Positions 11,940 to 64,000 of a stretch of 64,000 nt of DNA are shown here, one piece after another. The DNA is taken from the NCBI GenBank assembly GCA_000002435.2, contig CM018790.1; one strand, 5' to 3'. The position numbers were made by a program, and so were the translations under genes. This DNA is from Giardia intestinalis. Taxonomy: Eukaryota. How positions within the stretch are numbered: position 1 is the stretch's first letter; each line of letters begins with the position of its first letter. Under the pieces are notes generated by a model. The model was not told the DNA's origin, made no database searches, and saw only the letters and a program-made list of their open reading frames with translations.

Positions 11940-12641
11940 CTAATAGAAGTTAGATGCGTCTGTTCTGTAGTTGGCTTCGTGTGCCTTGCGCGCGATTTCT
12001 CTTGGGTTCTTCTCTACTTCAGGGGGAGAATTGCTAGTTGGTTTGAAGCCGGCCTGATTGAACCCATAGTTCATGTCATATCCATAGTTGGGGTTTGATA
12101 GAGCATCAGACGACTTGCCTGGTCTATCCATACTTGCCTGTTCAATCGCCCGCTGTCTGAATTCGTCATAGGTGGCTGAGGAGTCAGAGGGAATGACATG
12201 CGACTCTTGACCCTTCTTGTTGATACCGATGGACGTGTGTAAACTAGCCTCTTCCAAAGCAGGATCTGCTCTGACGTGAAACTGGTCCTTAGGTCTCTGT
12301 GTGCTCACGTGGACACTGGGAGGCGGCAACTTGCGGATCAACTCACCATTGGCATCAAGGTCGCCCCCTGGGCTTATGAGTACGCCCTCATCCTTGCGCT
12401 TATGCTCGCTGTTGTGCCTTGTAGCAAGCTCTGCATGCTCAGCAGACCTCTGAGCTGCGTAATCCTTCATGTCATTATCGGACATAAAGACTATCGATGA
12501 AGAAGTGTTTGCACCCGGCTTCATTCTGCGACCGGGAAGGGGCTGCTCTGCCGTTGCATCTCCAGTCTCGAAGGTTATCTGTGAGACCATTTGCTTCTGT
12601 ATGCGCGTGGGCACAGGGTCTGGGGGCGCCATCCAGGACAT
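11940..12641 (-). CDS. hypothetical low-complexity protein
   Basis: I take the start as the ATG at 12641 (MSWMAPP…). That gives a 14-bp A-rich spacer (tagctttaaaaaaag) shared with the divergent gene at 12656. The track start at 12674 would overlap that gene. Confidence 0.5.
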   Translation of the reverse strand: MSWMAPPDPVPTRIQKQMVSQITFETGDATAEQPLPGRRMKPGANTSSSIVFMSDNDMKDYAAQRSAEHAELATRHNSEHKRKDEGVLISPGGDLDANGELIRKLPPPSVHVSTQRPKDQFHVRADPALEEASLHTSIGINKKGQESHVIPSDSSATYDEFRQRAIEQASMDRPGKSSDALSNPNYGYDMNYGFNQAGFKPTSNSPPEVEKNPREIARKAHEANYRTDASNFY

Positions 12642-12655
12642 AGCTTTAAAAAAAG
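12642..12655. promoter_or_regulatory. 14-bp A/T-rich bidirectional promoter/initiator spacer between divergent genes
   Basis: The sequence tagctttaaaaaaag separates the minus-strand ATG at 12641 from the plus-strand ATG at 12656. Confidence 0.45.
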
Positions 12656-23700: not shown

Positions 23701-24825
23701 GAGCAGATTGAATATCTGAAGAACGGAGGAGACCCGTCTCTTTTGCACACAGTGGGAACTGGGTCCAAGTTGTCTGGTACAAATACGCCCATCAGCAAGA
23801 CACAGACGCTTAACAGCACGAGCCCCCATTCGGATATCATAAATCGCGATGCCAAGGGGAACGATGTCCTGCTTGTTAAGAAGTTAACCGAGGAGGTTAG
23901 ATCATATGGTGACAAGGTCACCGAACTGAGCCGCATGATAGCTCTCAAGGACGCTGAAATTTCTCTACTTCGCAAGCAAACGACCGACGGAGCGACGTAC
24001 AAAGACCTCCTCTGTCTGCTCAACGAAAAGATGAAGCGCGTGGACCAGCTTAATGCAGACGTCGAGCAACGGGACAGAGAAATATCCAAATTGGTTACCA
24101 TCAATCGCACAGGAACTGCCAAGCCTAAAGGCCTGACCGCGAGTATTCACAAGAGCGCTGCTATCAGTCGTTTCTACAGCCACGATGAGGTAAAGGATCT
24201 ATTGAAGCAGCTTTCTGACAAGGAAGCTGAGATCGCGCTTCTGAAATCCGAGAACATGAATAACAGCTATGAAAAGATCCATAACCTGGGAGACAAGTTC
24301 ACTGTGGTGAAGATAGAGAATCTGGAGGACAAGGTTGCTGTCTTGAACGCACACTTGGCAGACCGCGAAGGTACGATTGAGCGTCTCCAGGCCCAGCTAC
24401 AGGATGCCGAATTAGCCCTCCAGAGCCACAGAGCTAACCTCGGGCTTATCGGTATTGGGGGGCTGATGGCTTCGGGGAGCTACACGTCCCACAGAGACCG
24501 CGCTTCGGCCTCTCCAAGCACAGTTATGTCGCCGGATCTTGCCTACAGCAAGTCTCTAGAGGCCAGCAACGCTTCTCTGCAACAAAAGCTTGCAGACAGT
24601 AAGTTGAAGATAGCAGATGCACAGCAGGAATTGGAGTGGGCCCAGATGCGCATGGACTCTATGCACAGCGATCTACAGAAGTACAAGAGCAGATCTGGTG
24701 CTGCAAACACTCCGACAGCTGAGGGGCGCACTCCACAACAGCACAGCACGCCCCTCTCTATGACCGGCCAGCGTCCCGTCCTTGAGCCGAAAAACCACAC
24801 GCCTGTGTACAGCAGAGGAAAGTGA
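20701..24825 (+). CDS. N-terminal ankyrin-repeat plus long coiled-coil protein (1374 aa)
   Basis: N-terminus …DNDGNTALMLVSKLEDNSVFDLLIYEEAGNMNNEGHSALSIAVLARRMDKV… is followed by roughly 900 aa of heptad-rich sequence. A-rich initiator ttcttttaaaaaATG. AGTGACC follows the stop. Confidence 0.8.
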   Translation: MSVKASADWFECALAGNAASIRNAKKKWKGSKDNDGNTALMLVSKLEDNSVFDLLIYEEAGNMNNEGHSALSIAVLARRMDKVERLATLEGSMILGRGCTALIYAASVQDADVVPLLAPYSIIDQRNDEGYSALDIAVMNNDLAFVTSLIGAARVDLDTLDMALRYSLTPDSVRVNQVLMDYRATTYPNSDPFDPDARPTSHQAPSTTITSLNHQGTIDPKSTDVVPSEDSMQSRSEKQKSGRFSRAGSKQSSVRRTPKLDNASFSNSALVQSVARIGTPGPEEASSVYGHPLSNRSFESSTNYADQTASRLTNGSVRLQDMGDPEYAVSRFGDTVRSTSLMGEPSQSAADLKPQKGGRASRAGSKQSSVRRTPKLETASFSNSTLVQSVARIETPAPEDMMPAGRQVAAGSSAAYGETYAMSMEAPVDGYVDSELQYSVTPNEILTNVGSSQGGGQGFTNSAVLSRLRTPTSSVIADNGTQGLGIAPTRALKSASQPLNAYSAGSFSQAGCHGSVLSTRSITESMPVQSRRALPESASVTQLQELVREKQAIIDDLQNQNMKLNKELVEVKRSLHKAELVSGSASQGHWATQSSIDKTNLVIADMQEQAREMKTEAIRAKNFFERERERLNGDISEKTKRIAVLENTNRNMETSCERLRAANKDLIEQLTKKKTDDNITEMVVAQKDAEIGELRDRIKELESDVVRLTQKVSSHTSVAGRSRSGDETTVSQLTNDSNLRGYPAQAGNSTKLSAGPDEAGASEASLQDVVRQLTTMNNSKDIIISELRGELANLRDISRHSQQDHGASRSKADDMEMYDVKMALADLQARHDALSEDNSKTLEKLRVRTRELQGLVEEVEGEIPAGNLGTQTDISRMKAIVKVKNREIAELKESALNTASRHAATCKAINAENERLNAALRRKENELAKVHSELSTARDFQDHVEGVRSENTQLMKEMKRMRSELEKQANIHPELAKYESLVKTLGEENDTMRRVLKKRKEQIEYLKNGGDPSLLHTVGTGSKLSGTNTPISKTQTLNSTSPHSDIINRDAKGNDVLLVKKLTEEVRSYGDKVTELSRMIALKDAEISLLRKQTTDGATYKDLLCLLNEKMKRVDQLNADVEQRDREISKLVTINRTGTAKPKGLTASIHKSAAISRFYSHDEVKDLLKQLSDKEAEIALLKSENMNNSYEKIHNLGDKFTVVKIENLEDKVAVLNAHLADREGTIERLQAQLQDAELALQSHRANLGLIGIGGLMASGSYTSHRDRASASPSTVMSPDLAYSKSLEASNASLQQKLADSKLKIADAQQELEWAQMRMDSMHSDLQKYKSRSGAANTPTAEGRTPQQHSTPLSMTGQRPVLEPKNHTPVYSRGK
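21409..21905 (+). repeat. degenerate intragenic tandem duplication (about 354-nt period, two copies) inside the 20701-24825 CDS
   Basis: The protein segments QKSGRFSRAGSKQSSVRRTPKLDNASFSNSALVQSVARIGTPGPEE and QKGGRASRAGSKQSSVRRTPKLETASFSNSTLVQSVARIETPAPED repeat about 118 aa apart. Confidence 0.6.
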
Positions 24826-39077: not shown

Positions 39078-42000
39078 ATGTACCCAGTGCTCCGGCTGTA
39101 TCTCAAGACGGCCAGAGCCCACCTTTGTCTCTACATCTGCATGATTGTCATGCCGGTCGTTGTGATGGCCGCTGTCGCGCTCTTCTTCTCGTTCGAGGAT
39201 AGACTGCAAAGCCCTAGCAGCGGCCTAGGCGAAGGGACTCTCCCGCGCCTCCCGTTGTGCAGGGACCTGCCTGGTTGCACGAGCCAGACCGTGTACCTTG
39301 CATTCTCCCCCGACACGATCGAAGCGCGCCGGGTCGTTGACAGACTCGCCCAACAGAACGGATTAGAGTCGGAGCGGATTGTTGCCGTAAAAGACCGCGC
39401 AACGATGCAGAGGCTTGTGGCCGGGAAGAATCTCGGCCCGAGCTTTGTCGATGACGTGATTGCGGCCAACCTGGGAGAGACGGTGCGGGGGCACCTCCTA
39501 GGCGCCGATGGCTCCCTTGCTTCAATCCTCACCCCGCGGGAGGTCCTTGCAGACAGGGGCGTCGTTGCAGAGATGCTTGACACAGCGTATGGGCTTAATG
39601 ACAGAACCCTGGATGCGTTCGATGACGAGTGGGCCGCGAGCATGGGACCGGCCGACAGCGTCTTCCTCGCGCTCGACCTAAACATCTCAAACCGGGAAGC
39701 GTCAGACATCCCGCAGGCCGTCCAGTACTCGCTCTGGTACAGCCAGGAGATGATGACCTGGTACGCTGTCAAACACCCTAGTCCACGGACAAGGTCCTCA
39801 ACGCCTAACTCGTACGCCATGTCGTATGTGTGGAGCCCGGTGTCCTTCAGCATTTTCGAGGCGATTCACAACGCCCTGACGGAAACCTTTATTGGCAAAA
39901 CCATTTCGTACAGCCTGGGAGAGTATCCGTTGCAAGGCTCGACGACCACCCTTGCTGGGATGCAGGCGTACATGATTCTCCAGCTTTCTATCTTCCTCGA
40001 GTGCATCCTGACCCTCATCTTCGCAGCGCACTTTCGCGGGCCCTTTCAGACCACGCTCCGCCGATTGGGTGTCTCGGAGTTCTGCATGTACGGGTTCACG
40101 TTTGGCACACTTTTGATCGCCAACCTCTTGGCATACGGACTTCTCTTTGGTGCTGGCTCGCTCTTCAAGTTGTTTCCCTTCTCGAGCTACACTCCTTCTC
40201 TTAACGCCCTTGTCAGCATCACCTTCGCCCTCATCACCACCGCCTCCGTGCTGCTCCTGCACATGCTCTTCTACAACACGTCGGTGGCAATTGCCTTTGG
40301 GACGGTGGCCCTGATTCTGCTCGTGGCGTTCCCCTTCCTGATCCTCCTCGAGCAACCAGACTACCCCACGATCTGGACACAACTTGCTATTCCAACCTGG
40401 CTGACAAAGGTCTTCTACGTCCTGTTTCCTCCCCTGGGGCTCGTTGCCATCTGCGACATGATGATAACGTTGAGACCGGAGCGTATGCTGACTCTTCTTG
40501 TTGGACAGAGCGCCAGCACGTACGGCCTTGAGCTCCTGTTTAATGACATAGATGGATATCATTCAAAGCACTTTTCGTGTCTAGGTACAATATTTATTGG
40601 TGTATCTGAGTGTACTTTTCAGCTTCCTTACCTTGGATCTCTTGTCGTCACGTCCCTGGTTCAGAGCACCCTAGCTCTTCCGCTGTTAACTCTGGTTCTC
40701 CTCTTCTGCAAGCATGAGCCAGGCTCACAAGGACTTCCCCTCAGCTTCCTCTGCAGCCGCAAGTTCTACCGTACAAGGCGCCCCAAGGACAACCCGGAGT
40801 TCCCCTTTCTGTCTGTCTCAGGGCTTCGGAAGACATACCGTAAGGCAAAGAGATGCACGGTCGTCAAGGAGGAGGCGCTGTGCGGGCTGGACTTGCACCT
40901 TGAGCAGGGAGAGGTCACGGGCCTCGTCGCGACAAGCGGCGGGGGAAAGTCCACAGCCCTGGGGATCATGGCTGGCGAACTGGCGCCCTCCGGCGGGCAG
41001 TGCGCAGGGCTCGGGCACGATCTCCTCTGTCCGTACACCGCACGGTCCCTGCGGGGGTTCATCTCGCTCTGTCCCCAGGAATGGAACAACATCTGGATCA
41101 ACCTCACTGTCAGGGAGAACGTTCTTCTGTGCGCAGAGATCCGGGCCAGGGTCACGGGCCGCCTCGGCGAGCTCCAGCACAGAAGCGAGTCTCTCGACGG
41201 ATACGTCGACGAACTCCTGAAGCGCCTCGGGTTGCACGACCACGCGCACAAGCAGGCGTCTGCCCTGTCTGGGGGGATGCTTCGTCGCCTGGCCCTTGCA
41301 AACGCAACGGCGGGAGGTCCGCGGCTGATACTTCTCGACGAGATTACGGTGGGCGTGGACCCGATCCTGAAGCGCCAGATCTGGGCGTACGTTCGCGCAC
41401 TGGTCACAGAAGGCGCCGCAGCAGTCCTGTCCTCCCACGACGCCAACGAGATAGCAGAGCTAGCCACTCGCGTTGTCGTGCTCAAGGCCGGTCGGACGCA
41501 GGCCGATGCCCCTGTCGTGCAACTCCTTGAGGAGCATGGAGACTACGTGGTCTCAGTGACGTCGGAAAGCCGCGACGCCATTTCACGAGTAGCGCTGCTG
41601 CTCTCGACGGAGCTAGGGACTCTGCTCGGAGTTGGCGCTAAAGAGCTAGGTGTTACAATGGACCCACGGCGTGCCAGCATATCCATCCCTGCAGCACTAG
41701 TCCCAGATGCACATGCTCTGGCGGGTCTGATACAGCACTGCCGCGCCTTCGAGAAACGAGAGGGCGTCCAGGTTGCCGTCTCACGGGCCCGGCTGGAGGA
41801 TGTCTTCGAGCACCTGCTGGATGGCGAAGACGACGCGCAGCCGGAGCCTCTGCGCTCAGTAACTCTGGACGAGGACAGAAAGCCCTCCGTGACGCGCCAC
41901 CTGCTGCTCCTCTTCCTCTCCCTGGACCTTCAAGAGCACTGCAGAAGCTTTGTTTCCATACTTGCTGCACTGACCGCCCTGTTTGTGCTAATTTGGATGG

Positions 42001-45000
42001 GGGTCCATTATACTCTTACTAGCGTCAAAAGTGCTATTGAGTTGGTAGAGGCAGCGCAACTTAGCGAGTGGTCTCTGTCGTGCCTTGCTGACTGCATCAA
42101 CACCAATCCCGATGCAGACCCCTTGCTGACAGACGCCAATGTCACAACTGAAAACGTAAGCGAGTTTTTGAAGGCCAACCCAGGAGTCGATGCCCTTCAG
42201 GTCATGGAGCGCTGCCTGGTGAAGCGTCCTCGGCGACTCTTCGAGCCAATGCTTCAGTATCCAAATGGATTCTCCGCCTGTCTTAGCTACATGAATCGCT
42301 TGGGCCTCGACACATATCGCTACGATTACTTGACCGTTGGAGATCGTCAGACAGGATCCCTGGGAACCAACGAGACACAGTTCAGTTGGTACTACATTGG
42401 CGTAGTAGGTGACGCCTCGAAGGTCGAGACCTCAGACAGCGTATCATTGAGCCTGTCTCTGGACGACCCTCTTATAGCAAGCTCTCCAACGGGAGGGCTT
42501 GACTATTATGTCGCAAACGAGCCCCAGCAGATCTCTTTCTCTCCCCAGAACTTTGGGGATGTGTGGAGGAGGGGCGTGGAGGCAGGCCTCAGACACCCCT
42601 TGGACTCCGATGACCTGTTCTCGCTTGTGGCCCCCCGCATGACTGTACCTCAGTATCTTCGCAGTGACACATCTCCGCCCCCGAAGGATACAGAGAATCG
42701 CACACTTCTGCTTGAGGAGACAATTCTTCGCCAACCCACGGCAAGTGACTTCTTCGAGGGGATTACGTCCACAATTGGCAGTACATTTACCAAGCCAGAC
42801 TGCTTCGATTCACAGCCGGCTGTACAAGCACGTGTGGTTCGCAGGGTGTTCAGAAGCATCCCTGCGGTTATCTTTCAACCAGGCCAGCACGAGGCAGGCA
42901 GTGCGTTGCTTCTTAAGATGTATGCTATGCTTCCTCCTCTCGGGCCACAACGCAAGGCCTATCGTGATTGGGTCATTACCTTTACTCCATCGAAAGAGCG
43001 GGCCGATACGCCAGCATATACTTCGAAATATTTCATCCCTACTTTGTTTCAATATCTGTACAAATATCCTAACAATGCCATTGATATCACGAAAACCGAT
43101 CGTGTCAGATTCACATTCACGACGATTGGGGCGGATGCGATGGCCAAGATGACCGGCGCTCTCTTCCGTCAGCACCTCGTAGAGTCTCTTCGGGACACGC
43201 TCGGCGTAGAGGAGGCGTGGCGCCAAGGGACAGAATTCACCTATGACGGGTCCGTGATGAGTATCCCTAGGCGGTATCTGAACAGAGATCTCATATTCGA
43301 AACTCCGGGGGCAGCCCTGCAATCGATGGAGATAATGAGTGACTACTACTTAGTGTTCCTCTTATTGCTAGGAAGCGTTATCGTAGCCGGTCGCGCTGCC
43401 CGGGAATTTCAGCAGCGCACCGTGACCCTTCTTCACCTCCACGGGGCCTCTGAAATGCGCGTTGTCATGGTTCTTATCCTGTACTTCAGCATCTGGACCA
43501 TCATCCCCACAATACTGATTGCAGCGGCCTTGACAGCACTCTTTAAGGACGCCTTCTTCATCCACGGTCCTGCAGTGGCCGCTGTCGCATATACCTGCCT
43601 GGGAATGATAGCTCTTTCCAGCGTGTTCAATGCAGTCCTAGTGGCCGTGCTCCTTCGCTCTCAGCAGAACGCCATGCTGACCGTGGTTCTCCAGATCCTC
43701 GTCGCTGTCTTTGTCTCCGGCTCTCTCAGGGCCGAGGGAGCAGTGGCCGCCGTCCTGGGCCTTCTGGCTCCCGGCGCGGGGTACATGCCCGTGCTGCGAA
43801 ACGCCATAGGACTTAGCCGCATTAGCTGGGGGTCTCTTGCCCTCTCGTTTCTGATATCGCTGCTAGAGGTGCTTGCCTCGCTTGGCGTGCTGCTGCTCAG
43901 GAAGATTCGGGTCCGCCAGAGGATCAAAGACAGGACCCCTGACGGATCAGATTCAGAGGAGTCTGGACTGCTGAGCGGGCTATCAGAAACAACTTCCATG
44001 ACCAGCCTCAATTTGGAGAGGAAGGATGCACCTCCCGGACACCCTGACAACCACCTCAGCGTGCAGGGGATCTCGCACAGCTATCGCAAGGGCGTCCACG
44101 CGCTCGACAACGCCTCGTTTTCGGTGCCGGCGGGGAGCATCTTCGCCCTGCTCGGCGCCAACGGGGCCGGGAAGTCCACGATGATGCACGCCCTGACCGG
44201 AGTCCTGAGGCCGACTGCTGGAAGCGCTCTCTGCGTGCGTAACGAGGCCGACAGCAGATGGGTTGACCTCTTCCGGCGGGTCCACCACAGCCGGTACATC
44301 ACAGTTGTTCCCCAGCACGACCTTTACTGGCCGCAGCTCACGGTCCGCGACCACGTGAAGATCATCCGAGGGCTCACGCCCAGGGCACTTCGGCCAAACA
44401 TCAAGTCGACGGACCACGTGCTCCGCCTGGTGGGGCTGGCCGAGCACGCCAACAAGAGGGCCGGTGCGCTCTCGGGCGGGATGCGGCGGCGCCTCACGCT
44501 CGCGATGGTCCTAGTTTCGTCTCCCTCGCTCATCTGCCTCGACGAGGCGACGACGAGCTTCTCGGGGCGCCTGAGGAAGCGGGTCTGGGACGCCATTCTT
44601 GCCAGCAAGGGCGTCAACAAGACGCTCATCGTCACGAGCCACGACATGGCCGAGGTGGAGGCCCTGGCAGACACATGCTGCGTCCTCCGGAAGGGCCGGG
44701 TCATCGCCAGCGGGTCTGTCGACGATCTCTCTGCACAGAGCCGCGTGGCCTACACGCTCACCGTCGCGTGCGGATCATTAGAGGCGTTCGACGCCTACCT
44801 TGCTGGCCCCCACAAGTGCGCCTGTGAACTCTCTGGTGGGCTGCTTGCAAACGCCGAAGTCAACAGCGTTGCACGGCTAGTCAAGTACAGGATCCCTCAA
44901 GGTGTGGACCTCGAGACGGCCATCTCCTCTCTGTCCTCGGCCGGGTGCCTAACGCACGCCTGGGCGCTGACGCATGCACGCCTGGAGGAGGCGTTCGTTG

Positions 45001-45017
45001 ATCTAACAGGGTGCTAA
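39078..45017 (+). CDS. ABCA-type full ABC transporter (TMD-NBD-TMD-NBD, about 1979 aa)
   Basis: NBD1: Walker A GLVATSGGGKST, signature LSGGMLRRLALA, Walker B LILLDEITVGVDP. NBD2: Walker A LLGANGAGKSTMM, signature LSGGMRRRLTLAM, Walker B LICLDEATTSF. Multi-helix TMDs with large loops. The ATG at 39078 has the context tttcaaaaataATG; the track start at 39024 is a TTG. Confidence 0.9.
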   Translation: MYPVLRLYLKTARAHLCLYICMIVMPVVVMAAVALFFSFEDRLQSPSSGLGEGTLPRLPLCRDLPGCTSQTVYLAFSPDTIEARRVVDRLAQQNGLESERIVAVKDRATMQRLVAGKNLGPSFVDDVIAANLGETVRGHLLGADGSLASILTPREVLADRGVVAEMLDTAYGLNDRTLDAFDDEWAASMGPADSVFLALDLNISNREASDIPQAVQYSLWYSQEMMTWYAVKHPSPRTRSSTPNSYAMSYVWSPVSFSIFEAIHNALTETFIGKTISYSLGEYPLQGSTTTLAGMQAYMILQLSIFLECILTLIFAAHFRGPFQTTLRRLGVSEFCMYGFTFGTLLIANLLAYGLLFGAGSLFKLFPFSSYTPSLNALVSITFALITTASVLLLHMLFYNTSVAIAFGTVALILLVAFPFLILLEQPDYPTIWTQLAIPTWLTKVFYVLFPPLGLVAICDMMITLRPERMLTLLVGQSASTYGLELLFNDIDGYHSKHFSCLGTIFIGVSECTFQLPYLGSLVVTSLVQSTLALPLLTLVLLFCKHEPGSQGLPLSFLCSRKFYRTRRPKDNPEFPFLSVSGLRKTYRKAKRCTVVKEEALCGLDLHLEQGEVTGLVATSGGGKSTALGIMAGELAPSGGQCAGLGHDLLCPYTARSLRGFISLCPQEWNNIWINLTVRENVLLCAEIRARVTGRLGELQHRSESLDGYVDELLKRLGLHDHAHKQASALSGGMLRRLALANATAGGPRLILLDEITVGVDPILKRQIWAYVRALVTEGAAAVLSSHDANEIAELATRVVVLKAGRTQADAPVVQLLEEHGDYVVSVTSESRDAISRVALLLSTELGTLLGVGAKELGVTMDPRRASISIPAALVPDAHALAGLIQHCRAFEKREGVQVAVSRARLEDVFEHLLDGEDDAQPEPLRSVTLDEDRKPSVTRHLLLLFLSLDLQEHCRSFVSILAALTALFVLIWMGVHYTLTSVKSAIELVEAAQLSEWSLSCLADCINTNPDADPLLTDANVTTENVSEFLKANPGVDALQVMERCLVKRPRRLFEPMLQYPNGFSACLSYMNRLGLDTYRYDYLTVGDRQTGSLGTNETQFSWYYIGVVGDASKVETSDSVSLSLSLDDPLIASSPTGGLDYYVANEPQQISFSPQNFGDVWRRGVEAGLRHPLDSDDLFSLVAPRMTVPQYLRSDTSPPPKDTENRTLLLEETILRQPTASDFFEGITSTIGSTFTKPDCFDSQPAVQARVVRRVFRSIPAVIFQPGQHEAGSALLLKMYAMLPPLGPQRKAYRDWVITFTPSKERADTPAYTSKYFIPTLFQYLYKYPNNAIDITKTDRVRFTFTTIGADAMAKMTGALFRQHLVESLRDTLGVEEAWRQGTEFTYDGSVMSIPRRYLNRDLIFETPGAALQSMEIMSDYYLVFLLLLGSVIVAGRAAREFQQRTVTLLHLHGASEMRVVMVLILYFSIWTIIPTILIAAALTALFKDAFFIHGPAVAAVAYTCLGMIALSSVFNAVLVAVLLRSQQNAMLTVVLQILVAVFVSGSLRAEGAVAAVLGLLAPGAGYMPVLRNAIGLSRISWGSLALSFLISLLEVLASLGVLLLRKIRVRQRIKDRTPDGSDSEESGLLSGLSETTSMTSLNLERKDAPPGHPDNHLSVQGISHSYRKGVHALDNASFSVPAGSIFALLGANGAGKSTMMHALTGVLRPTAGSALCVRNEADSRWVDLFRRVHHSRYITVVPQHDLYWPQLTVRDHVKIIRGLTPRALRPNIKSTDHVLRLVGLAEHANKRAGALSGGMRRRLTLAMVLVSSPSLICLDEATTSFSGRLRKRVWDAILASKGVNKTLIVTSHDMAEVEALADTCCVLRKGRVIASGSVDDLSAQSRVAYTLTVACGSLEAFDAYLAGPHKCACELSGGLLANAEVNSVARLVKYRIPQGVDLETAISSLSSAGCLTHAWALTHARLEEAFVDLTGC

Positions 45018-56259: not shown

Positions 56260-57072
56260 TTAAGACAGAGACGACCTAATGTGAAAAAGCGTGTTGCTTA
56301 CAAAGCCCAGCTCTTTCAGTGTCTTCCCGCTTAGAGAGGTACGAGAGTAGAGGACAGAGGCCGCGGGGTACCATAGGCTTTCCGTTTCCAGAAGTTCTAG
56401 GCTATCAAATAGAGCCTCCATGGTCTCGTCAACCCTTATGGAGACTTGCTTCGGGGCCCCACCGCTTGTTTTGATGGCCTTGACCTTTATAACACCTTCA
56501 ACGACAGCCACTGTTTGGAGATCTGATGTATTACGAACACAACAAGCAGACCCCGAGCATGCAGCGGTAGAGTCAGTGTGTTCTGGGAAAACATCCTCAG
56601 AGCTTCCCAAGGGACCGTCAGACTTCATAGCGGCTCTCATTTCTGTGTACTGCTGCTGCATACGCTTGCAAAGCTCCTCTGACTCATGCTTTCTGGCCTC
56701 CATCTCATAACGGATGCGGTCATGGAGCTGAGCCTTCATATTCTTTTCCCTCTGCTTTTCCCGCTTGATTTCCTCAAGCTCCGCTTTTTGTCGTCGTATT
56801 CTTAACTCCTCTGGTGAGAATGATTGGGTACCTGGAGAATGAGTCGAGACACTGTTCTGCGTAACTCCCGAAGCAAGCGGGCTTCCGCTAAGCTTTGGAT
56901 CCTCAGGGGCTGGCTCCTTCTGAACCTCGTCACCCATCTCTGTAGGCTGCTGTGCGGCTATATAGTCTAAGATGGAGTCTACGTCATCACCTGCAGACGC
57001 TACTGCGTCGCGAACCAGCTCCAAAGGGAAGCCGTATGTCTCATGAATCGTGTTTATCAGCTCCTCGGACAT
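56260..57072 (-). CDS. UBA-like N-terminal domain protein with a coiled coil and a possible C-terminal UBX-like domain
   Basis: The first ATG is MSEELINTIHETYGFPLELVRDAVASAGDDVDSILDYIAAQQ (UBA-like) with the context accaaaaattccccATG. The C-terminus is …YSRTSLSGKTLKELGFVSNTLFHIRSS. The track start at 57102 is a non-ATG codon. Confidence 0.5.
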   Translation of the reverse strand: MSEELINTIHETYGFPLELVRDAVASAGDDVDSILDYIAAQQPTEMGDEVQKEPAPEDPKLSGSPLASGVTQNSVSTHSPGTQSFSPEELRIRRQKAELEEIKREKQREKNMKAQLHDRIRYEMEARKHESEELCKRMQQQYTEMRAAMKSDGPLGSSEDVFPEHTDSTAACSGSACCVRNTSDLQTVAVVEGVIKVKAIKTSGGAPKQVSIRVDETMEALFDSLELLETESLWYPAASVLYSRTSLSGKTLKELGFVSNTLFHIRSSLS

Positions 57073-57245
57073 GGGGAATTTTTGGTTGGCAAGGAAGGCC
57101 AAAAGGAGTTTTTTCGCCGACAGCGTTCACATGTAATTGCAAAAAGTTGCAGAAAATTAACGTGAATCCGCGCAGACCCTTGCTTTGCAATTTCAGATGA
57201 TGTGTTCAAAAGTTTGTTTCAAAATGTTGCGGAATCCAAAAAAGG

Positions 57246-60200
57246 ATGAACCCGTTCGACCTTACTCCTGCATCGATTCCCTTCGTCCATGCGAGTGACA
57301 AGGCGGCCATGCTTCAGAGCGTGATACCGTTAGCAGTGGCTAAGGGCGTGGCATCTAATGCAGACACTCTTTCGGCGACAGACATCGCCATTGCGGCACG
57401 TGAGCCGCTACGCAACGCAAATCCGAATCCAGATGCCAGTTACATACTTACCCTGACACGCTACTATAAGCTTATGCGTCCAATTGCAGAGCACGCAAAT
57501 GACCACGACGTTCTGCGCGCCACCGTGGCTAACCCCAGCAAGTGGGTCTCTGAGAACGTATCTCTCGAGTGCTCCTCCATTGCCGGTGAAGCAGTTGCTG
57601 CTGCAATTAATCTAGCTGCAGCAAAGATTTTTAGTGGAATAGGAAATCACTACGACGCGACTAGGTTCTTCTCGGAGGCCGAGGCTATTCTGCAGGAGGC
57701 TGCTACGCTAGCAGAAAGCGGCCACCTATGTGGATTTTTAGGCCCTACTCATCTCCGGGCGCTGGCTTTGTTTGCCCAAGCACAGTCTCTCGAGAGCACT
57801 GCCGTGAGCAAGATCAACAAATTGGGTGCAGAGGAAATAGAGTCAACTGAACTGCAGACAGCCCTGCGTACGCTCACCGAGGCTAGTGCTCTTTACGATC
57901 GAGTTTTCAAAGACCTGGCTCCGACAGCCTCTTCTTCTACCGTTGTTGCAAGCACGTCTCTCTTTAAGGCTAAGCTTCTCCCTGCTCTTGCCAGATACGT
58001 CGTTGCGAATGCCTACTTTAATGGGAACAGGCTTTCTAATACCGCTACTGAATGCCGCAGGGCCTCTGAACTTCTTACCGTCGCACAAGCCGCGCTGGAG
58101 CTTACTCCTGACCAAGAACGCATGACTTCTGAGCTGGCCACGGCAATTATCGGCATACAGAGCAACCTACCCGTGGCCGGTGTCGATGACGAGGCACAGT
58201 TATATGATCTTCAGAGGATGACAGAGCAAGATTTCCGTGAATTCAAGCAAGCATACGGCGCACCAACAGATGTTCTACCTCCGTGGAGAAACGATTCTTC
58301 TCAAGACACTGCGGCTCTTAACGAATTACGCCGCATTGTGGCCAGCAAGGACGATGAAATTCAGGCACTTAACATCTCGTTACGAAACGCGCAGCTGGAG
58401 CTTCTCCAGGTATCTTCTGGAAGCGTTCTCAACACAGAAGTCACGTATCTTAAGGGTCTTTTGGAGAAGGAACATGAAACCGTGAAGTCACTTCAAGAAG
58501 CAGCAGAACTTAAGAACAAAGAGGTGGATGCATTGAACGAAGCCCTTAAGCAACAAGAGGAGATGGTCAAGTCCCTCTGTGAAAGTATCTCTCCATCTGC
58601 ATCCCGCAAGAATCTCAAGAGCCCAGCTGCGGGGGATGCGTCCACCCGCGAGGCAGACAGGCGAGAGCGCATGATAAAGAAACTTCAGATGCAGGTTATG
58701 AGTAAGGACATTGAGATTAATGAGTTGAAGTCTTCTCTTGAGCTAGCGAACAGCGGCATGTTAGCCTCTACCACCGGTGCGACGACAGACGAGGTCGACG
58801 CTCTCCGAAGGGACATTGCGGCTCTTCAGAATGCTATTGATGATAAGGACAAAGAGGTAAAGTGGCTAGAAGACGAGATTCGGCAAAAGGATGATACGAT
58901 GATAGAATTGCGGGGCCGCACGGAAAGTGAGATAGAGTCCCTCCAGGAGACAGCCGCCAGCAAAGACCAGGAAATTGCAAAGCTCGAGGCAGAATTGAAG
59001 AGTACCTTGCAAATGATCCAGGCCCTCAAGAACTCTGAGGCTGATGGCGCTGGTGCAACAAACATACTGCAGCGTGAGAAGGCACACCTAGAGGATAAGT
59101 TGCAAGAAAAGGAAAATATCGTAGCAGAATTAAACGAGGCCTTAAGAAAAAAAGATTTAACGATTGCTGAGCTGCATGAGAGCGCTGCAGCTCAGCAACG
59201 GAAGGAACAGGAGACAATCGACTTCTACGAAAACCTCAAAAGAGAGCAGAATCAAGTTATCTCTGATCTGCGAAGCTCGCTCTCGGCTAAGCAGGCCACT
59301 TTAGCCATGGCAGAGGAGACTGCAAAGACACTAGAAAGTGAAGTCCAGTCGCTAAAGAGTGAAGTGGACGCTAAGACTATGGAGATAGAAAGCCTCCTTG
59401 CTATGTCGACGAGCAAGGCCAACGATATGGACCAGACCATGGAAGAGCTCCAGTCATTGAGGACCGAACTGCTGGCCAAAGAAGGAGAAATTCAAACCCT
59501 TAGGAACCTAATCGAAGAGAAGGAAGCAATAATTACTGATTTACGGATGACAGAAAGCGAACACCAGAACAAGTATACTACTCTCCAAACCACACTTCAG
59601 CGGCTGAATGAAGACCTTCAGAGCAGAGACCGTCAGATCGTTGCACTTTTAGAAGAAGCAGAGGCAGCAGCTGAGCGTCAAAAGGCGAGTCAACATCTTC
59701 AGGAACAGCTCCAGAGGCAGATTTCTCAGCAAGATATTGTAAGCAAAAGCGTCCAAGAACAAGTCTGTATGATGAGCGATGCTGCCTGTCGGGCCCGCTA
59801 TTTAGAGGATAAATTGGCCACCAAAACATACGACGAAGAAGTTTTGCGTACTATGATACAACGTGTAGAAGATGCCGACCGAGACAAGGGGAGGACTATC
59901 GAGAGTCTGAGAACGGAGATTGAGTTTTTGCGCAGTGAACCTAAGTATCAGCCAGACGACAGATCGGGTCAAATAGAAGCACTGGAAGACAAGATCGTAG
60001 CGTTGAACACACATATTCGGTATCTTACTAACGAGCTACTTCAAAAGGAGCAAGAGCTAGTGCACTTAGCTAATGACGATAAATCAGCTGAGACAGACCG
60101 TCTGAAGAAGCTTCTTATTAGTCAGGATGATGAGCTGAATGAGCTAAAGGAGAACCTGTTCCTTCTTAGAGAAAAGGGAATAAGCGATGGAATTCTTGAC

Positions 60201-63200
60201 GGAGAACCCACGATGGTTCCTGCAAGCATGCTTGTTAGCAAGCAAGAGGAGATCGATAGATTAAAAGAAGCCTTAGAGTCTCTTAGCGCAGAGGAGCCGA
60301 TTATAGTTACCCGGCACGAAGAGCCAGAAGAGGATATCTCTAGTCTTAAGAAGCAGCTTACTGAGCTCACCGGACTGGTTGCCAGTCAAGCCGTCCAGAT
60401 TGAGGGTTTGAATGCTCAATTAGCCGATAAAACACGTGACCTTGACACTGCCTTGTATGATGTCGCAGTCTTAAGACGTGCATTGCGCGTCATTGAGGAT
60501 GACTACAGAGATTCTGAGCGCAGTCTTGACCAACTCGAACAACAAGCTGTCAACATGAAGGATGCTTATGAGTTATCTCTTGCAGCGCAGGTAAGTCCTA
60601 TTGGCGTTCTTGAAAACGAGCTCCGAGCACTCAGTACGCATAATCAGCAATTGATAGACGTCATTGATGAAAAGGACGGTGAGATTTCACGGCTTCATGC
60701 TTCTGTTATCGATGCTATTTCTGCTAGCCAAGTTGTAGTTGCTCCTCCCGATTTCTCCAATTTGCTCACCGATAAAGACGCCGAGCTCGAGCGCCTCCGC
60801 ACGCTCCTCGACCATCCCCCGGTTGAGCAGCCCGTAGACGACTCCCAGAAGTACCGGGACGCGATCGGCTTCCTCAAGGAGGAGCTTGCCTACAAGGACC
60901 ATGAGATCCGCCGCATGAGGGCTGACAGCGCGCCCTCCGAGGTCGCGCAGATCGTTGACGCCTCCCTCAAGCAGGCCCTGGCACAGAAAGAGGAAGAGGT
61001 GGCGCGCCTCAAGAGCGCCCTGGAGGATCTCGCCTCGGACCACATCGGCCAGAAGACCGGCGAGCCCGACACAGCCGCTCTCAAGGCCCTGCAGCAGGAG
61101 ATCAGCACAAAGGACGACGAGATCCAGAAGCTCACCGCTGTCATCGCTGCCATGCCGCGCACCCATGAGCCGCAGGACATCACTGACGCCGCAGAGCTGG
61201 TGCGCATCCTTGAGTCCAACCTCGAGAGGGAGAAGGATGACACGGCTGCTCTTCGCGACGCCCTGCGCAACGCAGAGGAGAAGAACAATGAGCAGCTTCG
61301 CGAAATAGATGATCTTCGTCGGGAGCTCGACGCGCTTCGCAGGGCGGCTCCCGTCGAGCCTCTTGCGGCTGCAGCCCCGGCCGACGACGACCTTCTCCGG
61401 TCGCTGCGCGCAGACAACGAGATGCTGATGGAGGATGTCCATGATAAGCGCCAAGACATCAAGGTTCTGGAGCGCAAGCTTCTTCAGGCCAAGGACGTCA
61501 TCGAGGATCTCAAGGACGCGCTCGTCCGCGTCGAGCCCGCCGAGCTGACGGCCATTGCAGACGGCGACGCGGAGGACATCGGCCGCCTCCAGGACCTCCT
61601 CGAGAACATGAAGCAGCGCGAGAAGGAGCTCAACCGCTTCTACACCGACCTGCTGAAGCAGACCCAGCCGGCACAGGCACCAGAGCCCCTCACCCAGGCA
61701 GACTTCGAGCGGATCCTCTCCGAGAAGGACGCCGAGCTCGAGCGCCTCCGCACGCTCCTCGACCATCCCCCGGTTGAGCAGCCCGTAGACGACTCCCAGA
61801 AGTACCGGGACGCGATCGGCTTCCTCAAGGAGGAGCTTGCCTACAAGGACCATGAGATCCGCCGCATGAGGGCTGACAGCGCGCCCTCCGAGGTCGCGCA
61901 GATCGTTGACGCCTCCCTCAAGCAGGCCCTGGCACAGAAAGAGGAAGAGGTGGCGCGCCTCAAGAGCGCCCTGGAGGATCTCGCCTCGGACCACATCGGC
62001 CAGAAGACCGGCGAGCCCGACACAGCCGCTCTCAAGGCCCTGCAGCAGGAGATCAGCACAAAGGACGACGAGATCCAGAAGCTCACCGCTGTCATCGCTG
62101 CCATGCCGCGCACCCATGAGCCGCAGGACATCACTGACGCCGCAGAGCTGGTGCGCATCCTTGAGTCCAACCTCGAGAGGGAGAAGGATGACACGGCTGC
62201 TCTTCGCGACGCCCTGCGCAACGCAGAGGAGAAGAACAATGAGCAGCTTCGCGAAATAGATGATCTTCGTCGGGAGCTCGACGCGCTTCGCAGGGCGGCT
62301 CCCGTCGAGCCTCTTGCGGCTGCAGCCCCGGCCGACGACGACCTTCTCCGGTCGCTGCGCGCAGACAACGAGATGCTGATGGAGGATGTCCATGATAAGC
62401 GCCAAGACATCAAGGTTCTGGAGCGCAAGCTTCTTCAGGCCAAGGACGTCATCGAGGATCTCAAGGACGCGCTCGTCCGCGTCGAGCCCGCCGAGCTGAC
62501 GGCCATTGCAGACGGCGACGCGGAGGACATCGGCCGCCTCCAGGACCTCCTCGAGAACATGAAGCAGCGCGAGAAGGAGCTCAACCGCTTCTACACCGAC
62601 CTGCTGAAGCAGACCCAGCCGGCACAGGCACCAGAGCCCCTCACCCAGGCAGACTTCGAGCGGATCCTCTCCGAGAAGGACGCCGAGCTCGAGCGCCTCC
62701 GCACGCTCCTCGACCATCCCCCGGTTGAGCAGCCCGTAGACGACTCCCAGAAGTACCGGGACGCGATCGGCTTCCTCAAGGAGGAGCTTGCCTACAAGGA
62801 CCATGAGATCCGCCGCATGAGGGCTGACAGCGCGCCCTCCGAGGTCGCGCAGATCGTTGACGCCTCCCTCAAGCAGGCCCTGGCACAGAAAGAGGAAGAG
62901 GTGGCGCGCCTCAAGAGCGCCCTGGAGGATCTCGCCTCGGACCACATCGGCCAGAAGACCGGCGAGCCCGACACAGCCGCTCTCAAGGCCCTGCAGCAGG
63001 AGATCAGCACAAAGGACGACGAGATCCAGAAGCTCACCGCTGTCATCGCTGCCATGCCGCGCACCCATGAGCCGCAGGACATCACTGACGCCGCAGAGCT
63101 GGTGCGCATCCTTGAGTCCAACCTCGAGAGGGAGAAGGATGACACGGCTGCTCTTCGCGACGCCCTGCGCAACGCAGAGGAGAAGAACAATGAGCAGCTT

Positions 63201-64000
63201 CGCGAAATAGATGATCTTCGTCGGGAGCTCGACGCGCTTCGCAGGGCGGCTCCCGTCGAGCCTCTTGCGGCTGCAGCCCCGGCCGACGACGACCTTCTCC
63301 GGTCGCTGCGCGCAGACAACGAGATGCTGATGGAGGATGTCCATGATAAGCGCCAAGACATCAAGGTTCTGGAGCGCAAGCTTCTTCAGGCCAAGGACGT
63401 CATCGAGGATCTCAAGGACGCGCTCGTCCGCGTCGAGCCCGCCGAGCTGACGGCCATTGCAGACGGCGACGCGGAGGACATCGGCCGCCTCCAGGACCTC
63501 CTCGAGAACATGAAGCAGCGCGAGAAGGAGCTCAACCGCTTCTACACCGACCTGCTGAAGCAGACCCAGCCGGCACAGGCACCAGAGCCCCTCACCCAGG
63601 CAGACTTCGAGCGGATCCTCTCCGAGAAGGACGCCGAGCTCGAGCGCCTCCGCACGCTCCTCGACCATCCCCCGGTTGAGCAGCCCGTAGACGACTCCCA
63701 GAAGTACCGGGACGCGATCGGCTTCCTCAAGGAGGAGCTTGCCTACAAGGACCATGAGATCCGCCGCATGAGGGCTGACAGCGCGCCCTCCGAGGTCGCG
63801 CAGATCGTTGACGCCTCCCTCAAGCAGGCCCTGGCACAGAAAGAGGAAGAGGTGGCGCGCCTCAAGAGCGCCCTGGAGGATCTCGCCTCGGACCACATCG
63901 GCCAGAAGACCGGCGAGCCCGACACAGCCGCTCTCAAGGCCCTGCAGCAGGAGATCAGCACAAAGGACGACGAGATCCAGAAGCTCACCGCTGTCATCGC
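57246..64000 (+). CDS. Giant coiled-coil protein (more than 2250 aa, 3'-truncated by window end) with a C-terminal array of identical 317-aa tandem repeats
   Basis: My own translation from the ATG at 57246 (context atccaaaaaaggATG) runs to base 63998 without a stop. About 1170 aa of unique, heptad-rich sequence (…EIQALNISLRNAQLELLQ…) is followed by the repeat unit DKDAELERLRTLLDHPPVEQPVDDSQKYRDAIGFLKEELAYKDHEIRRMRADSAPSEVAQIVDASLKQALAQKEEEVARLKSALEDL… The ORF is absent from the supplied track because no stop codon lies in the window. Confidence 0.85.
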   Translation, partial: MNPFDLTPASIPFVHASDKAAMLQSVIPLAVAKGVASNADTLSATDIAIAAREPLRNANPNPDASYILTLTRYYKLMRPIAEHANDHDVLRATVANPSKWVSENVSLECSSIAGEAVAAAINLAAAKIFSGIGNHYDATRFFSEAEAILQEAATLAESGHLCGFLGPTHLRALALFAQAQSLESTAVSKINKLGAEEIESTELQTALRTLTEASALYDRVFKDLAPTASSSTVVASTSLFKAKLLPALARYVVANAYFNGNRLSNTATECRRASELLTVAQAALELTPDQERMTSELATAIIGIQSNLPVAGVDDEAQLYDLQRMTEQDFREFKQAYGAPTDVLPPWRNDSSQDTAALNELRRIVASKDDEIQALNISLRNAQLELLQVSSGSVLNTEVTYLKGLLEKEHETVKSLQEAAELKNKEVDALNEALKQQEEMVKSLCESISPSASRKNLKSPAAGDASTREADRRERMIKKLQMQVMSKDIEINELKSSLELANSGMLASTTGATTDEVDALRRDIAALQNAIDDKDKEVKWLEDEIRQKDDTMIELRGRTESEIESLQETAASKDQEIAKLEAELKSTLQMIQALKNSEADGAGATNILQREKAHLEDKLQEKENIVAELNEALRKKDLTIAELHESAAAQQRKEQETIDFYENLKREQNQVISDLRSSLSAKQATLAMAEETAKTLESEVQSLKSEVDAKTMEIESLLAMSTSKANDMDQTMEELQSLRTELLAKEGEIQTLRNLIEEKEAIITDLRMTESEHQNKYTTLQTTLQRLNEDLQSRDRQIVALLEEAEAAAERQKASQHLQEQLQRQISQQDIVSKSVQEQVCMMSDAACRARYLEDKLATKTYDEEVLRTMIQRVEDADRDKGRTIESLRTEIEFLRSEPKYQPDDRSGQIEALEDKIVALNTHIRYLTNELLQKEQELVHLANDDKSAETDRLKKLLISQDDELNELKENLFLLREKGISDGILDGEPTMVPASMLVSKQEEIDRLKEALESLSAEEPIIVTRHEEPEEDISSLKKQLTELTGLVASQAVQIEGLNAQLADKTRDLDTALYDVAVLRRALRVIEDDYRDSERSLDQLEQQAVNMKDAYELSLAAQVSPIGVLENELRALSTHNQQLIDVIDEKDGEISRLHASVIDAISASQVVVAPPDFSNLLTDKDAELERLRTLLDHPPVEQPVDDSQKYRDAIGFLKEELAYKDHEIRRMRADSAPSEVAQIVDASLKQALAQKEEEVARLKSALEDLASDHIGQKTGEPDTAALKALQQEISTKDDEIQKLTAVIAAMPRTHEPQDITDAAELVRILESNLEREKDDTAALRDALRNAEEKNNEQLREIDDLRRELDALRRAAPVEPLAAAAPADDDLLRSLRADNEMLMEDVHDKRQDIKVLERKLLQAKDVIEDLKDALVRVEPAELTAIADGDAEDIGRLQDLLENMKQREKELNRFYTDLLKQTQPAQAPEPLTQADFERILSEKDAELERLRTLLDHPPVEQPVDDSQKYRDAIGFLKEELAYKDHEIRRMRADSAPSEVAQIVDASLKQALAQKEEEVARLKSALEDLASDHIGQKTGEPDTAALKALQQEISTKDDEIQKLTAVIAAMPRTHEPQDITDAAELVRILESNLEREKDDTAALRDALRNAEEKNNEQLREIDDLRRELDALRRAAPVEPLAAAAPADDDLLRSLRADNEMLMEDVHDKRQDIKVLERKLLQAKDVIEDLKDALVRVEPAELTAIADGDAEDIGRLQDLLENMKQREKELNRFYTDLLKQTQPAQAPEPLTQADFERILSEKDAELERLRTLLDHPPVEQPVDDSQKYRDAIGFLKEELAYKDHEIRRMRADSAPSEVAQIVDASLKQALAQKEEEVARLKSALEDLASDHIGQKTGEPDTAALKALQQEISTKDDEIQKLTAVIAAMPRTHEPQDITDAAELVRILESNLEREKDDTAALRDALRNAEEKNNEQLREIDDLRRELDALRRAAPVEPLAAAAPADDDLLRSLRADNEMLMEDVHDKRQDIKVLERKLLQAKDVIEDLKDALVRVEPAELTAIADGDAEDIGRLQDLLENMKQREKELNRFYTDLLKQTQPAQAPEPLTQADFERILSEKDAELERLRTLLDHPPVEQPVDDSQKYRDAIGFLKEELAYKDHEIRRMRADSAPSEVAQIVDASLKQALAQKEEEVARLKSALEDLASDHIGQKTGEPDTAALKALQQEISTKDDEIQKLTAVI
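60771..64000 (+). repeat. Perfect tandem repeat, 951-bp unit, at least 3.4 copies, in frame within the giant CDS; GC-rich
   Basis: Copies begin near 60777, 61728, 62679 and 63630. The minus-strand ORFs 60890-61477, 61841-62428 and 62792-63379 in the track have identical sequences and are exactly 951 bp apart. The array reaches the window edge, so its full length is unknown. Confidence 0.9.

Follow-up and report, generated by a model that had tools for sequence, protein, structure and literature searches.

Giardia VSP repeat genes and the repeat-bearing surface or cytoskeletal proteins of other parasites carry arrays that evolve by unequal crossing-over and gene conversion. We compare with these a coding array found in the window (the whole 64,000-nt stretch of Giardia intestinalis DNA analysed here, from contig CM018790.1), where the first 6.75 kb of the known gene GL50803_113677 of G. 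intestinalis WB, named “Coiled-coil protein,” runs into tandem units of 951 nt. As in other concerted coding-repeat arrays, identical units fill the centre and degenerate copies lie at the edges, every copy shares the differences that set isolates apart, and the copy number varies by assembly. Unlike those arrays, this one has an unusually long unit, lies in an intracellular coiled-coil protein, and has a GC3 that rises sharply from 0.4-0.5 to 0.83 in the homogenised segment only.

Two protein families provide further comparisons. Bro1 proteins include human ALIX, HD-PTP, and BROX, yeast Bro1, and the Giardia proteins GiVPS31A, B, and C (GL50803_7031, 6464, and 103709), and the layout of GL50803_113677, a head and then coiled coil, is like that of GiVPS31A and B. 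It differs from Bro1 proteins in being two to three times larger, in its identical-repeat array, and in having neither a Pfam BRO1 match nor a significant ALIX profile match. With SMC proteins it shares long coiled-coil arms, but it has neither their ATPase head motifs nor their hinge. Taken as a whole, the locus is likely to be best explained as GL50803_113677 with a GC-rich array kept homogeneous, its product perhaps joining a Bro1-like head to a rod or tether of the ESCRT/endocytic network.

Gene model and protein layout

Translation of the plus frame from the ATG at 57246 reaches the window end with zero stops; the closest in-frame stop upstream occupies 57198, with no other in-frame ATG between it and 57246. 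A sequence-only reading of this DNA had proposed a single giant plus-strand coiled-coil gene missing from the program-made ORF list, and both points are borne out, by the open frame of 2,251 codons and the heptad pattern given below and by the list, which lacks the gene because ORFs running off the window are not listed. Its description of the gene as unannotated was mistaken: the gene is already GL50803_113677 in WB, ESU34981.1 plus ESU35074.1 in isolate DH, and GLP15_2958 in isolate P15, with AS175_ORF_244 and GS_ORF_325 as further orthologues. The first 1,177 residues of the window protein are 99% identical to ESU34981.1, the DH entry being split in two at the repeat, with a sequencing-error stop at its end, and misnamed as SMC.

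The neighbouring genes in the window are exact matches to the WB proteins KAE8302542-44, GL50803_009057, and GL50803_0014850, and GLP15_2958 lies three genes away from TAP42 (GLP15_2961), a spacing identical to that in the window. The intergenic region between the ATG and the minus-strand GL50803_0014850 ORF, which could start at 57102 at the farthest, is presumed to hold the promoter. GL50803_113677 is expressed in four isolates (FPKM 64, 16, 72, and 60), and a polyA site has been mapped for it. The 2007 gene model from the Sanger reference (CH991763:66556-73383) measures 6,828 bp, exactly the two-copy length, accounted for as 1177 + 2x317 + 8 + 456 aa; this 2,275-aa protein, with which the listed mass of 255 kDa is also consistent, has two repeat units vs. 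at least 3.39 in the present assembly.

The protein has three parts: a 345-aa globular head, about 830 aa of unique coiled coil, and the array of identical 317-aa modules (Table 1). Other assemblies place a 456-aa coiled-coil tail after the array, and the full protein would comprise at least 2,900 aa, provided that the fourth unit is complete. Hydrophobic heptad periodicity in long helices was found in both the unique rod and the unit: over aa 346-1177, all of the unique coiled region, the heptad contrast is 0.643, vs. 0.403 +/- 0.017 in shuffles, and the best-phase contrast is 0.646 in the repeat unit and 0.417 in the head. An AF2 model (pTM 0.35) predicts the unit to be a segmented coiled coil of six main helices (residues 23-50, 55-91, 99-125, 134-190, 200-251, and 265-296), 27-57 residues long, with Pro/Gly-containing breaks between them. 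Pfam searches of the window protein returned coiled-coil families at sub-threshold level only.

Table 1. Features of the GL50803_113677 locus (window positions)
Feature	Position	Strand	Details
Divergent intergenic region, presumed promoter	57103-57245	.	143 bp; from ORF list, in-frame stop 57198, and neighbour identity
GL50803_113677, 5' part	57246-64000	+	6,755 nt, 2,251 codons; stop codon past window end
N-terminal globular all-helical domain	57246-58280	+	aa 1-345; Bro1-like predicted fold
Unique coiled-coil region	58281-60212	+	aa 346-989; from heptad contrast; Pfam matches sub-threshold only
Old degenerate repeat copy	60213-60776	+	aa 990-1177; GC3 0.41; from BLASTP with unit
Antisense ORF, non-coding mirror-frame artefact	60687-63896	-	1,069 aa; codon-aligned with sense frame
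Primer 113677-F match	60765-60788	+	Exact, unique; straddles upstream array boundary
Repeat unit 1	60777-61727	+	951 nt, 317 aa; perfect period-951 identity; GC3 0.83
Repeat unit 2	61728-62678	+	Same as unit 1; junction motif GAGAAGGACGCCGAGCTCGAG at 61722-61742
Repeat unit 3	62679-63629	+	Same as unit 1; junction motif at 62673-62693
Repeat unit 4, first 371 nt	63630-64000	+	Unit cut by window end; junction motif at 63624-63644

The 951-bp array and other assemblies

Every base from 60777 to 63049 is identical to the base 951 positions downstream (0 mismatches in 2,273 comparisons), and the array spans 3,224 nt, or 3.39 units, up to the window end that truncates it. The perfect tandem repetition read from the sequence, at least 3.4 copies of 951 bp, is thus confirmed in unit size and identity; its start is refined to 60777 (codon 1178), giving a unique 5' part of 1,177 codons rather than 1,170. 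The array has the structure n x 951 nt plus a 25-nt overlap, and its edges are sharp, nucleotide identity dropping to chance level just outside. A BLASTP alignment of the unit with the upstream flank covers 184 columns at 27% identity (E 4e-6); for the flank downstream of the array, identity to the unit is 31% (E 2e-12). TRF is silent on the array only since its maximum period is 500. Of the primers for this gene, 113677-F comes from Figure S8 of PMC3610916, and 113677-R matches all unit junctions save for one absent G.

At the array, short-read assemblies are either collapsed or broken. A Logan contig from at least 20 runs stops at 60806, which is 30 nt (k-1) inside the unit, and the only expectation that fits this end is a unit with two different predecessors. 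The DH 454 contigs end 446-448 nt into the unit, approached from either side, and the AS175 model (3,942 bp) and the GS model (3,534 bp, at a contig edge) are likewise cut off at or in the unit. A metagenome assembly runs through the unit with no variant breaks, and published RNA-seq reads gave a false “intron” in GL50803_113677 that PCR rejected.

These observations bear on whether the array was created or inflated by the assembler or by polishing, or whether true differences between copies were erased. Polishing with multi-mapping reads tends to make copies uniform, and the older WB reference has two copies vs. at least 3.39 in the window, both of which would suit such an origin. We nevertheless regard it as improbable, since 20 or more independent short-read assemblies contain the tandem junction, each of the DH, AS175, and GS assemblies breaks at or inside the unit, the metagenome assembly crosses it uniformly, and the spurious RNA-seq junction was found in published reads for this very gene. 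That two or more copies lie in tandem is secure; it is the exact copy number and the absolute identity that depend on this assembly, and the perfect identity may be partly due to consensus polishing of the long-read data.

Probable concerted evolution and base composition

Copies are closer to one another within the genome (0/2273) than the unit is between lineages. The WB unit differs from that of isolate L001 at 3/951 nt and from that of DH at 1-2 positions, with only 3-4 variable unit sites between isolates; where WB was compared with a related isolate over both parts of the gene, 3/951 nt differ in the unit and 32/3531 nt in the unique part. Every window copy carries the bases specific to WB (unit positions 59, 614, and 678), and the degenerate edge copies, at 27% and 31% identity, stand outside the homogenisation. 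The identical units therefore probably reflect concerted evolution by ongoing recombination. Through recurrent unequal exchange and conversion among units, the central units would stay identical, and the same processes would alter the copy number, two in the 2007 Sanger reference and at least 3.39 in the long-read assembly.

If the array had expanded just once, very recently, in the WB lineage and were not being homogenised, its copies would be identical because they are young, and both the zero differences between copies and the sharing of the WB bases at 59, 614, and 678 by all of them agree with an expansion after the split of the isolates. We think this unlikely. The unit is apparently multi-copy in A2 (DH, AS175) and in assemblage B (GS), a state read from assembly behaviour, namely contig breaks, and the P15 (assemblage E) and 2007 WB models are both two-copy in length. 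Furthermore, a GC3 of 0.83 in the unit only requires many substitutions accrued while the segment was repeated, and the degenerate flanks, together with the diverged modules of the distant orthologue, indicate an ancient modular region. Among the three causes originally offered for the identity, ongoing homogenisation is thus the one we favour; recent expansion alone is less probable, and the breaks in at least 20 short-read assemblies and in DH, AS175, and GS rule out that the array is an artefact.

The contrast in codon composition between the repeats and the unique 5' part, remarked on from the letters alone, is substantial. Windowed GC reaches 0.63-0.66 within the array against 0.46-0.54 upstream of it, and GC3 is 0.83 in the unit, 0.41-0.55 elsewhere in the gene (0.41 and 0.50 for the old copies that flank the array), and 0.48-0.69 in the 26 other window ORFs. 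The GC3 step is located within ~20 codons of both unit edges, and in the distant Giardia orthologue (2,326 aa), which contains diverged modules only, the GC3 profile is flat. Enrichment of silent-site GC is thus restricted to the recombining segment, as is characteristic of GC-biased gene conversion (gBGC), and this composition suggests that gBGC is probably behind it; our literature search returned no papers on gBGC in Giardia. GC-biased repair during conversions would push GC3 to 0.83 in the unit only and would also strip it of TTA, CTA, and TCA codons, opening a long antisense ORF.

These three codons number 0 in the unit vs. 39 in the unique 1,177 codons, and GC-ending codons dominate the unit; therefore, a long antisense frame is open. 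It terminates where the sense frame has its last TTA/CTA/TCA codon, codon 1148 (nt 60687), whose reverse complement is the stop, in agreement with the earlier view that the minus-strand ORF is an artefact. As the longest complete ORF listed for the region it could be taken for a genuine gene, but we give that very little credence: it mirrors the sense codons exactly and is open only because of the codon usage of the unit, its translation is skewed (23% Leu, 12% Val, and 11% Gly), and it is the sense frame that shows heptad periodicity and has orthologues.

Head domain and possible function

The head seems to have a Bro1-like fold. In an AF2 model built on two sequences (mean pLDDT 58), it is predicted to resemble the Bro1 fold, a TPR-like solenoid of helices with an elongated shape and about 350 aa, and the best superposition of residues about 110-340 is with solved Bro1 domains. 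At the sequence level, hmmscan with a cut-off as loose as E 10 gave zero BRO1 (PF03097) matches for either the window protein or the distant orthologue, and a profile of the same two proteins retrieved no Bro1 chain from PDB sequences. A comparison of this shallow two-sequence profile with PDB-checked ALIX 1-346 in hhalign gave E 0.29, the sole aligned stretch being FAQAQ (176-180) against ALIX LAQAQE. GiVPS31B likewise yields no more than weak Bro1 sequence signals, alongside “Smc superfamily” hits. GL50803_113677 is absent from the published Giardia ESCRT survey, which names VPS31A, B, and C only, and a phmmer search for paralogues found none.

The database name of ESU34981.1 and ESU35074.1, given by NCBI/UniProt to the DH orthologue, makes the protein an SMC chromosome-segregation ATPase, and a long coiled coil does bear a generic resemblance to SMC arms. 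We attach practically no weight to this assignment. Walker A ([GA]xxxxGK[ST]), Walker B (hhhhDE), and LSGG signature motifs are all missing from the complete one-copy protein and from the distant orthologue, so that an SMC ATPase is rejected at motif level; Pfam matches to SMC_N and the hinge are absent, the complete C-terminus of P0005 contains no ATPase head, and the N-terminal domain is predicted to be all-helical and Bro1-like rather than an ABC-type head.

Many Giardia coiled-coil proteins are cytoskeletal, and the sequence-only reading had accordingly suggested a role in the axoneme, median body, or ventral disc, for which we found nothing. A structural cytoskeletal protein would suit the giant coiled coil and the sub-threshold Pfam matches to Lebercilin and CEP85, with fainter ones to CCDC39 and CCDC89 (ciliary/centrosomal families), but no ciliary or centrosomal match passes its family threshold, and the similarity is of the compositional kind typical of coiled coils. 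The searched literature holds no localisation data for GL50803_113677. The predicted Bro1-like head also argues against a cytoskeletal role, as does co-purification: like the GiVPS31 paralogues, the protein co-immunoprecipitates with ESCRT-II baits, with 134 hits for GiVPS36A and 28 for GiVPS25, spectral counts that are inflated by the size of a protein of at least 255 kDa (PMC8394649). It is among the most abundant preys of these baits and was classed by the authors as cell-traffic related. We therefore consider a cytoskeletal role doubtful; the protein counts neither as an SMC ATPase nor as an established part of the cytoskeleton. The sole functional data, this co-purification, together with the predicted Bro1-like N-terminal fold, point to ESCRT and membrane traffic, and GL50803_113677 may, with less certainty than holds for the array, serve the Giardia ESCRT/endocytic network as a long rod or tether of variable length.

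The GL50803_113677 locus and its tandem array

Translation of the plus frame that opens at the ATG at 57246 gives 2,251 codons up to the window end with zero stops; the nearest in-frame stop upstream lies at 57198, and the next in-frame ATG after it is the start itself. A direct period scan found every base from 60777 to 63049 to be identical to the base 951 nt further on (0 mismatches in 2,273 comparisons), so that the final 3,224 nt repeat a unit of 951 nt (317 codons) 3.39 times without a single difference. The array follows the formula n x 951 nt + 25 nt, and outside it nucleotide identity is at once that of chance; its GC content is 0.63-0.66, against 0.46-0.54 upstream. Tandem Repeats Finder, run with a maximum period of 500, did not report the array because 951 exceeds this setting, and the gene is missing from the ORF list because the list omits ORFs running off the window.

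Coordinates of the gene, its repeat array and other features discussed in the text
Feature	Sequence	Position	Strand	Remark
GL50803_113677, part in window	window	57246-64000	+	runs off the window
GL50803_113677, published model	CH991763	66556-73383		6,828 bp, 2,275 aa + stop
Tandem array	window	60777-64000	+	951-nt unit
Primer 113677-F match	window	60765-60788		spans upstream array edge
Primer 113677-R matches	window	61722-61742, 62673-62693, 63624-63644		unit-unit junctions
GC3 dip	window	about 61200-61330 and repeats	+	unit codons about 140-185
1069-aa ORF	window	60687-63896	-	listed complete ORF, mirror frame of sense codons
195-aa ORF	window	60890-61477	-	repeated at +951 and +1902
117-aa ORF	window	60955-61308	+	repeated at +951 and +1902
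303-aa ORF	window	23193-24101	-	entirely within ankyrin-repeat protein gene
Ankyrin-repeat protein gene	window	20701-24822	+	
ABC-transporter ORF	window	39078-45014	+	1979 aa
GL50803_0014850	window	56260-57072	-	upstream neighbour
P0007 gene	L002 (Logan SRR30592944 contig)	5183-12981		distant orthologue
DH unit fragment	L003 (AHGT01000111.1)	6532-6979		last 448 nt of contig

Franzen et al. 2013 (PMC3610916) have a "Coiled-coil protein GL50803_113677" in a supplementary table, and its 2,275 aa equal 1177 + 2 x 317 + 8 + 456 aa exactly, i.e., a two-copy version of the window protein. Primer 113677-F (CTCACCGATAAAGACGCCGAGCTC; PMC3610916) has a single exact match in the window, and primer 113677-R (PMC3610916, Figure S8) corresponds to the three unit-unit junctions minus one G, the missing base being either a misprint or a true mismatch to the genome. 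Three upstream window proteins have exact WB matches, namely TAP42-like KAE8302542.1/XP_001705887.1, GL50803_009057, and GL50803_0014850 (1.54-Mb contig); the P15 orthologue GLP15_2958 lies three genes from TAP42-like GLP15_2961, with spacing equal to that in the window; and the 255 kDa given in co-IP tables (PMC8394649) fits the two-copy model. Primer, neighbours, model length, gene spacing, and mass agree, and the gene is therefore already annotated. It is also expressed, with FPKM values of 64 in WB, 16 in AS175, 72 in P15, and 60 in GS; in the table that lists them (PMC3610916), clathrin heavy chain comes close to the WB value. The sequence-only reading described the open frame and the perfect 951-nt repeats correctly; its interpretation holds in part, and primer, coordinates, and mass contradict its statement that the gene was unannotated. 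A literature search on the new-style gene ID returned nothing specific.

GiVPS31B (GL50803_6464) had been considered as an identity, since a model cut short about 100 aa into the unit would have roughly its mass of 142 kDa, and since GiVPS31B, too, carries weak Bro1 and SMC signals; it was rejected when primer, coordinates, and the mass of 255 kDa pointed to GL50803_113677. An entry of isolate DH, ESU34981.1, named "Chromosome segregation protein SMC," shares 99% identity with the unique 1177 aa.

The tandem copies exist and are not an assembly artefact. Among short-read (Logan) contigs, reached through the upstream neighbour gene and at most 10.3 kb each, one that recurs in at least 20 runs stops at 60806, which is 30 nt (k-1, k = 31) inside the unit. 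Such a branch of the de Bruijn graph at the unit start needs two predecessors, the unique flank on the one hand and a further unit's end on the other; a single-copy version would not branch, because its 25-nt overlap is too short. The DH 454 assembly is broken inside the unit: coming from the left, a contig stops after 446 nt of it, and a second contig opens 448 nt before its right end. The gene models of AS175 (3942 bp) and GS (3534 bp, lying at a contig edge) are cut off at the unit or inside it (PMC3610916). A megahit metagenome contig (L001) has the array collapsed to one copy and makes the complete 456-aa tail visible. Furthermore, GL50803_113677 was among the RNA-seq "cis-intron" candidates that were rejected by PCR (Franzen et al., PMC3610916), and reads crossing unit junctions would give rise to such a candidate if the reference has the wrong copy number. 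How many units there are, and that they are absolutely identical, depends on this one assembly, since polishing can homogenise copies; a literature search for long-read descriptions of the locus gave nothing specific.

The DH fragment of the unit carries two single-base insertions relative to the window unit, after unit positions 377 and 437, which shift the frame, so that ESU34981.1 (1307 aa) ends at a false stop; the C-terminal part of the DH gene is a separate entry, ESU35074.1, on a different contig. The widely used 2,275-aa, 255-kDa model is a repeat under-count, and the DH gene is divided over two entries under a wrong SMC name; this affects RNA-seq mapping (one false intron already) as well as proteomic quantification and cloning of the gene.

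Evolution and base composition of the unit

Pairwise searches with the unit revealed degenerate copies on both sides of the array, directly upstream (aa about 990-1157; 27% identity, E 4e-6) and in the tail directly downstream (31% identity, E 2e-12). P0007, a distant Giardia orthologue of 2326 aa with a 42% identical head and the same ADK-like and small genes downstream, contains several unit-like segments at 27-37% identity in the same type of search; neither this search nor stringent self-BLASTP found near-identical repeats in it. Stringent self-BLASTP found no internal repeats in the one-copy protein or in P0007, and these were detected by the pairwise searches. The diverged segments in P0007 and in the flanks therefore indicate that the modular region is old. 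The start of the P0007 gene lies 4 nt ahead of the upstream gene's end, which marks the genome it comes from as very compact.

There are 0 differences among the window copies, the unit differs from that of the metagenome contig at 3/951 positions and from that of DH at 1-2, and at these positions every window copy has the WB base; the unique part differs from the metagenome contig at 32/3531 nt. Read from the sequences, the zero differences within the window, the WB-shared bases, and the multi-copy signs in A2, B, and E isolates form the pattern that unequal exchange and gene conversion would leave in the course of concerted evolution. A private recent expansion in WB is a possible, less likely explanation of the identity of the copies.

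GC3 is 0.83 in the unit; the old copies next to the array have 0.41 and 0.50, the remaining gene 0.51-0.55, and 26 other window ORFs 0.48-0.69. The change is abrupt: in 40-codon windows, GC3 rises from 0.38 to 0.88 at the left array edge and falls from 0.82 to 0.55 at the right one, and the peak is absent from the non-homogenised P0007. Codon-usage selection should affect the whole gene, so a step limited to the recombining segment would be best explained by GC-biased gene conversion. Comparison of the unit in WB, the metagenome contig, and DH gave too few variable sites to polarise changes, and a literature search for GC-biased gene conversion in Giardia found no paper. Within the unit, GC3 dips to 0.62-0.65 between flanks at 0.85-0.92. 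Of the 26 background ORFs, that of the ABC transporter stands highest in GC3 (0.69; typical values 0.48-0.61).

Giardia recombination biology is still debated, and at this locus both homologous recombination and conversion bias lend themselves to a compact test, with copy number and per-unit variants readable from long reads across isolates and a clean GC3 step against which conversion bias can be tested. Current views stand, the gene being known and such repeat evolution well understood; of interest are the repeat number that the standard gene model counts too low, the GC3 step, and a possible fourth Bro1-type protein.

Protein architecture and possible links to ESCRT

Heptad periodicity from residue 346 on is 0.64, versus 0.40 +/- 0.017 for shuffles. 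The unit is predicted by AF2 to be mostly helical, with helices of 27-57 residues, Pro/Gly-containing breaks between them, and no confident tertiary fold (pTM 0.35), and is therefore a segmented coiled coil; Pfam coiled-coil matches were all sub-threshold. The SMC ATPase reading implied by the DH name was rejected, as Walker A, Walker B, signature motif, and hinge are all absent.

The head (aa 1-345) has relatives in Giardia only (phmmer against 1.84 billion representative proteins), and its AF2 model, made from two sequences, has a low overall pLDDT of 58, with 70-90 over about residues 140-310. Pfam BRO1 matched neither the window protein nor its distant orthologue, and sequence-level tests did not confirm a Bro1 reading: in hhalign, the shallow two-sequence head profile scored E 0.29 against a verified ALIX Bro1 sequence, though the one stretch that it aligned sets FAQAQ against the ALIX LAQAQE motif.

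The known Giardia Bro1-type proteins are GiVPS31A/B/C (GL50803_7031, 6464, and 103709; 109, 142, and 95 kDa), two of which have coiled-coil regions and "Smc superfamily" matches (PMC8394649); GL50803_113677 is missing from this set. In co-IP it has 134 hits with GiVPS36A as bait and 28 with GiVPS25, it appears a third time in the data for CHMP7 or VPS20L, and the authors classed it as cell-traffic related (PMC8394649). It already ranks among the most abundant ESCRT-II bait partners; a literature search found no localisation data. In our best functional reading, to which we give about even chances, the protein serves the ESCRT and endocytic network as a long rod or tether whose head is Bro1-like. 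The cytoskeletal role suggested by the sequence-only reading seems unlikely. Improbable as a whole is a fuller proposal in which GL50803_113677 would be a fourth Bro1-headed, ESCRT-associated Giardia protein whose rod length varies in 317-aa steps (an estimated 40 nm or so of coiled coil per unit) by mitotic unequal exchange; the array, with its identical copies in one genome and its sharp GC3 step, would then serve as a natural readout of GC-biased gene conversion in progress. If the Bro1-like head were confirmed, the reduced Giardia ESCRT system would gain another Bro1-type adaptor, on an exceptionally long rod.

Mirror-frame ORFs and a neighbouring gene

The 1069-aa ORF had been taken for an antisense artefact, rightly so, since it is an exact mirror of the sense codons. 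Only a sense TTA, CTA, or TCA codon can close the mirror frame, and there are 39 of these in the unique 1177 codons and 0 in the repeat region; the final one (codon 1148) is where the ORF ends, at nt 60687. The frame is open because the unit uses GC-ending codons, and its hypothetical product would consist of 23% Leu, 12% Val, and 11% Gly. The 195-aa and 117-aa ORFs, both with period 951, look like more off-frame shadows of the GC-rich unit, and the 303-aa ORF is probably another mirror-frame ORF. The neighbour GL50803_0014850 is called "hypothetical" in WB and UBX domain-containing protein by UniRef in its DH version (V6TDS9), and its start codon differs between the models (270 aa in WB, 280 aa in DH).
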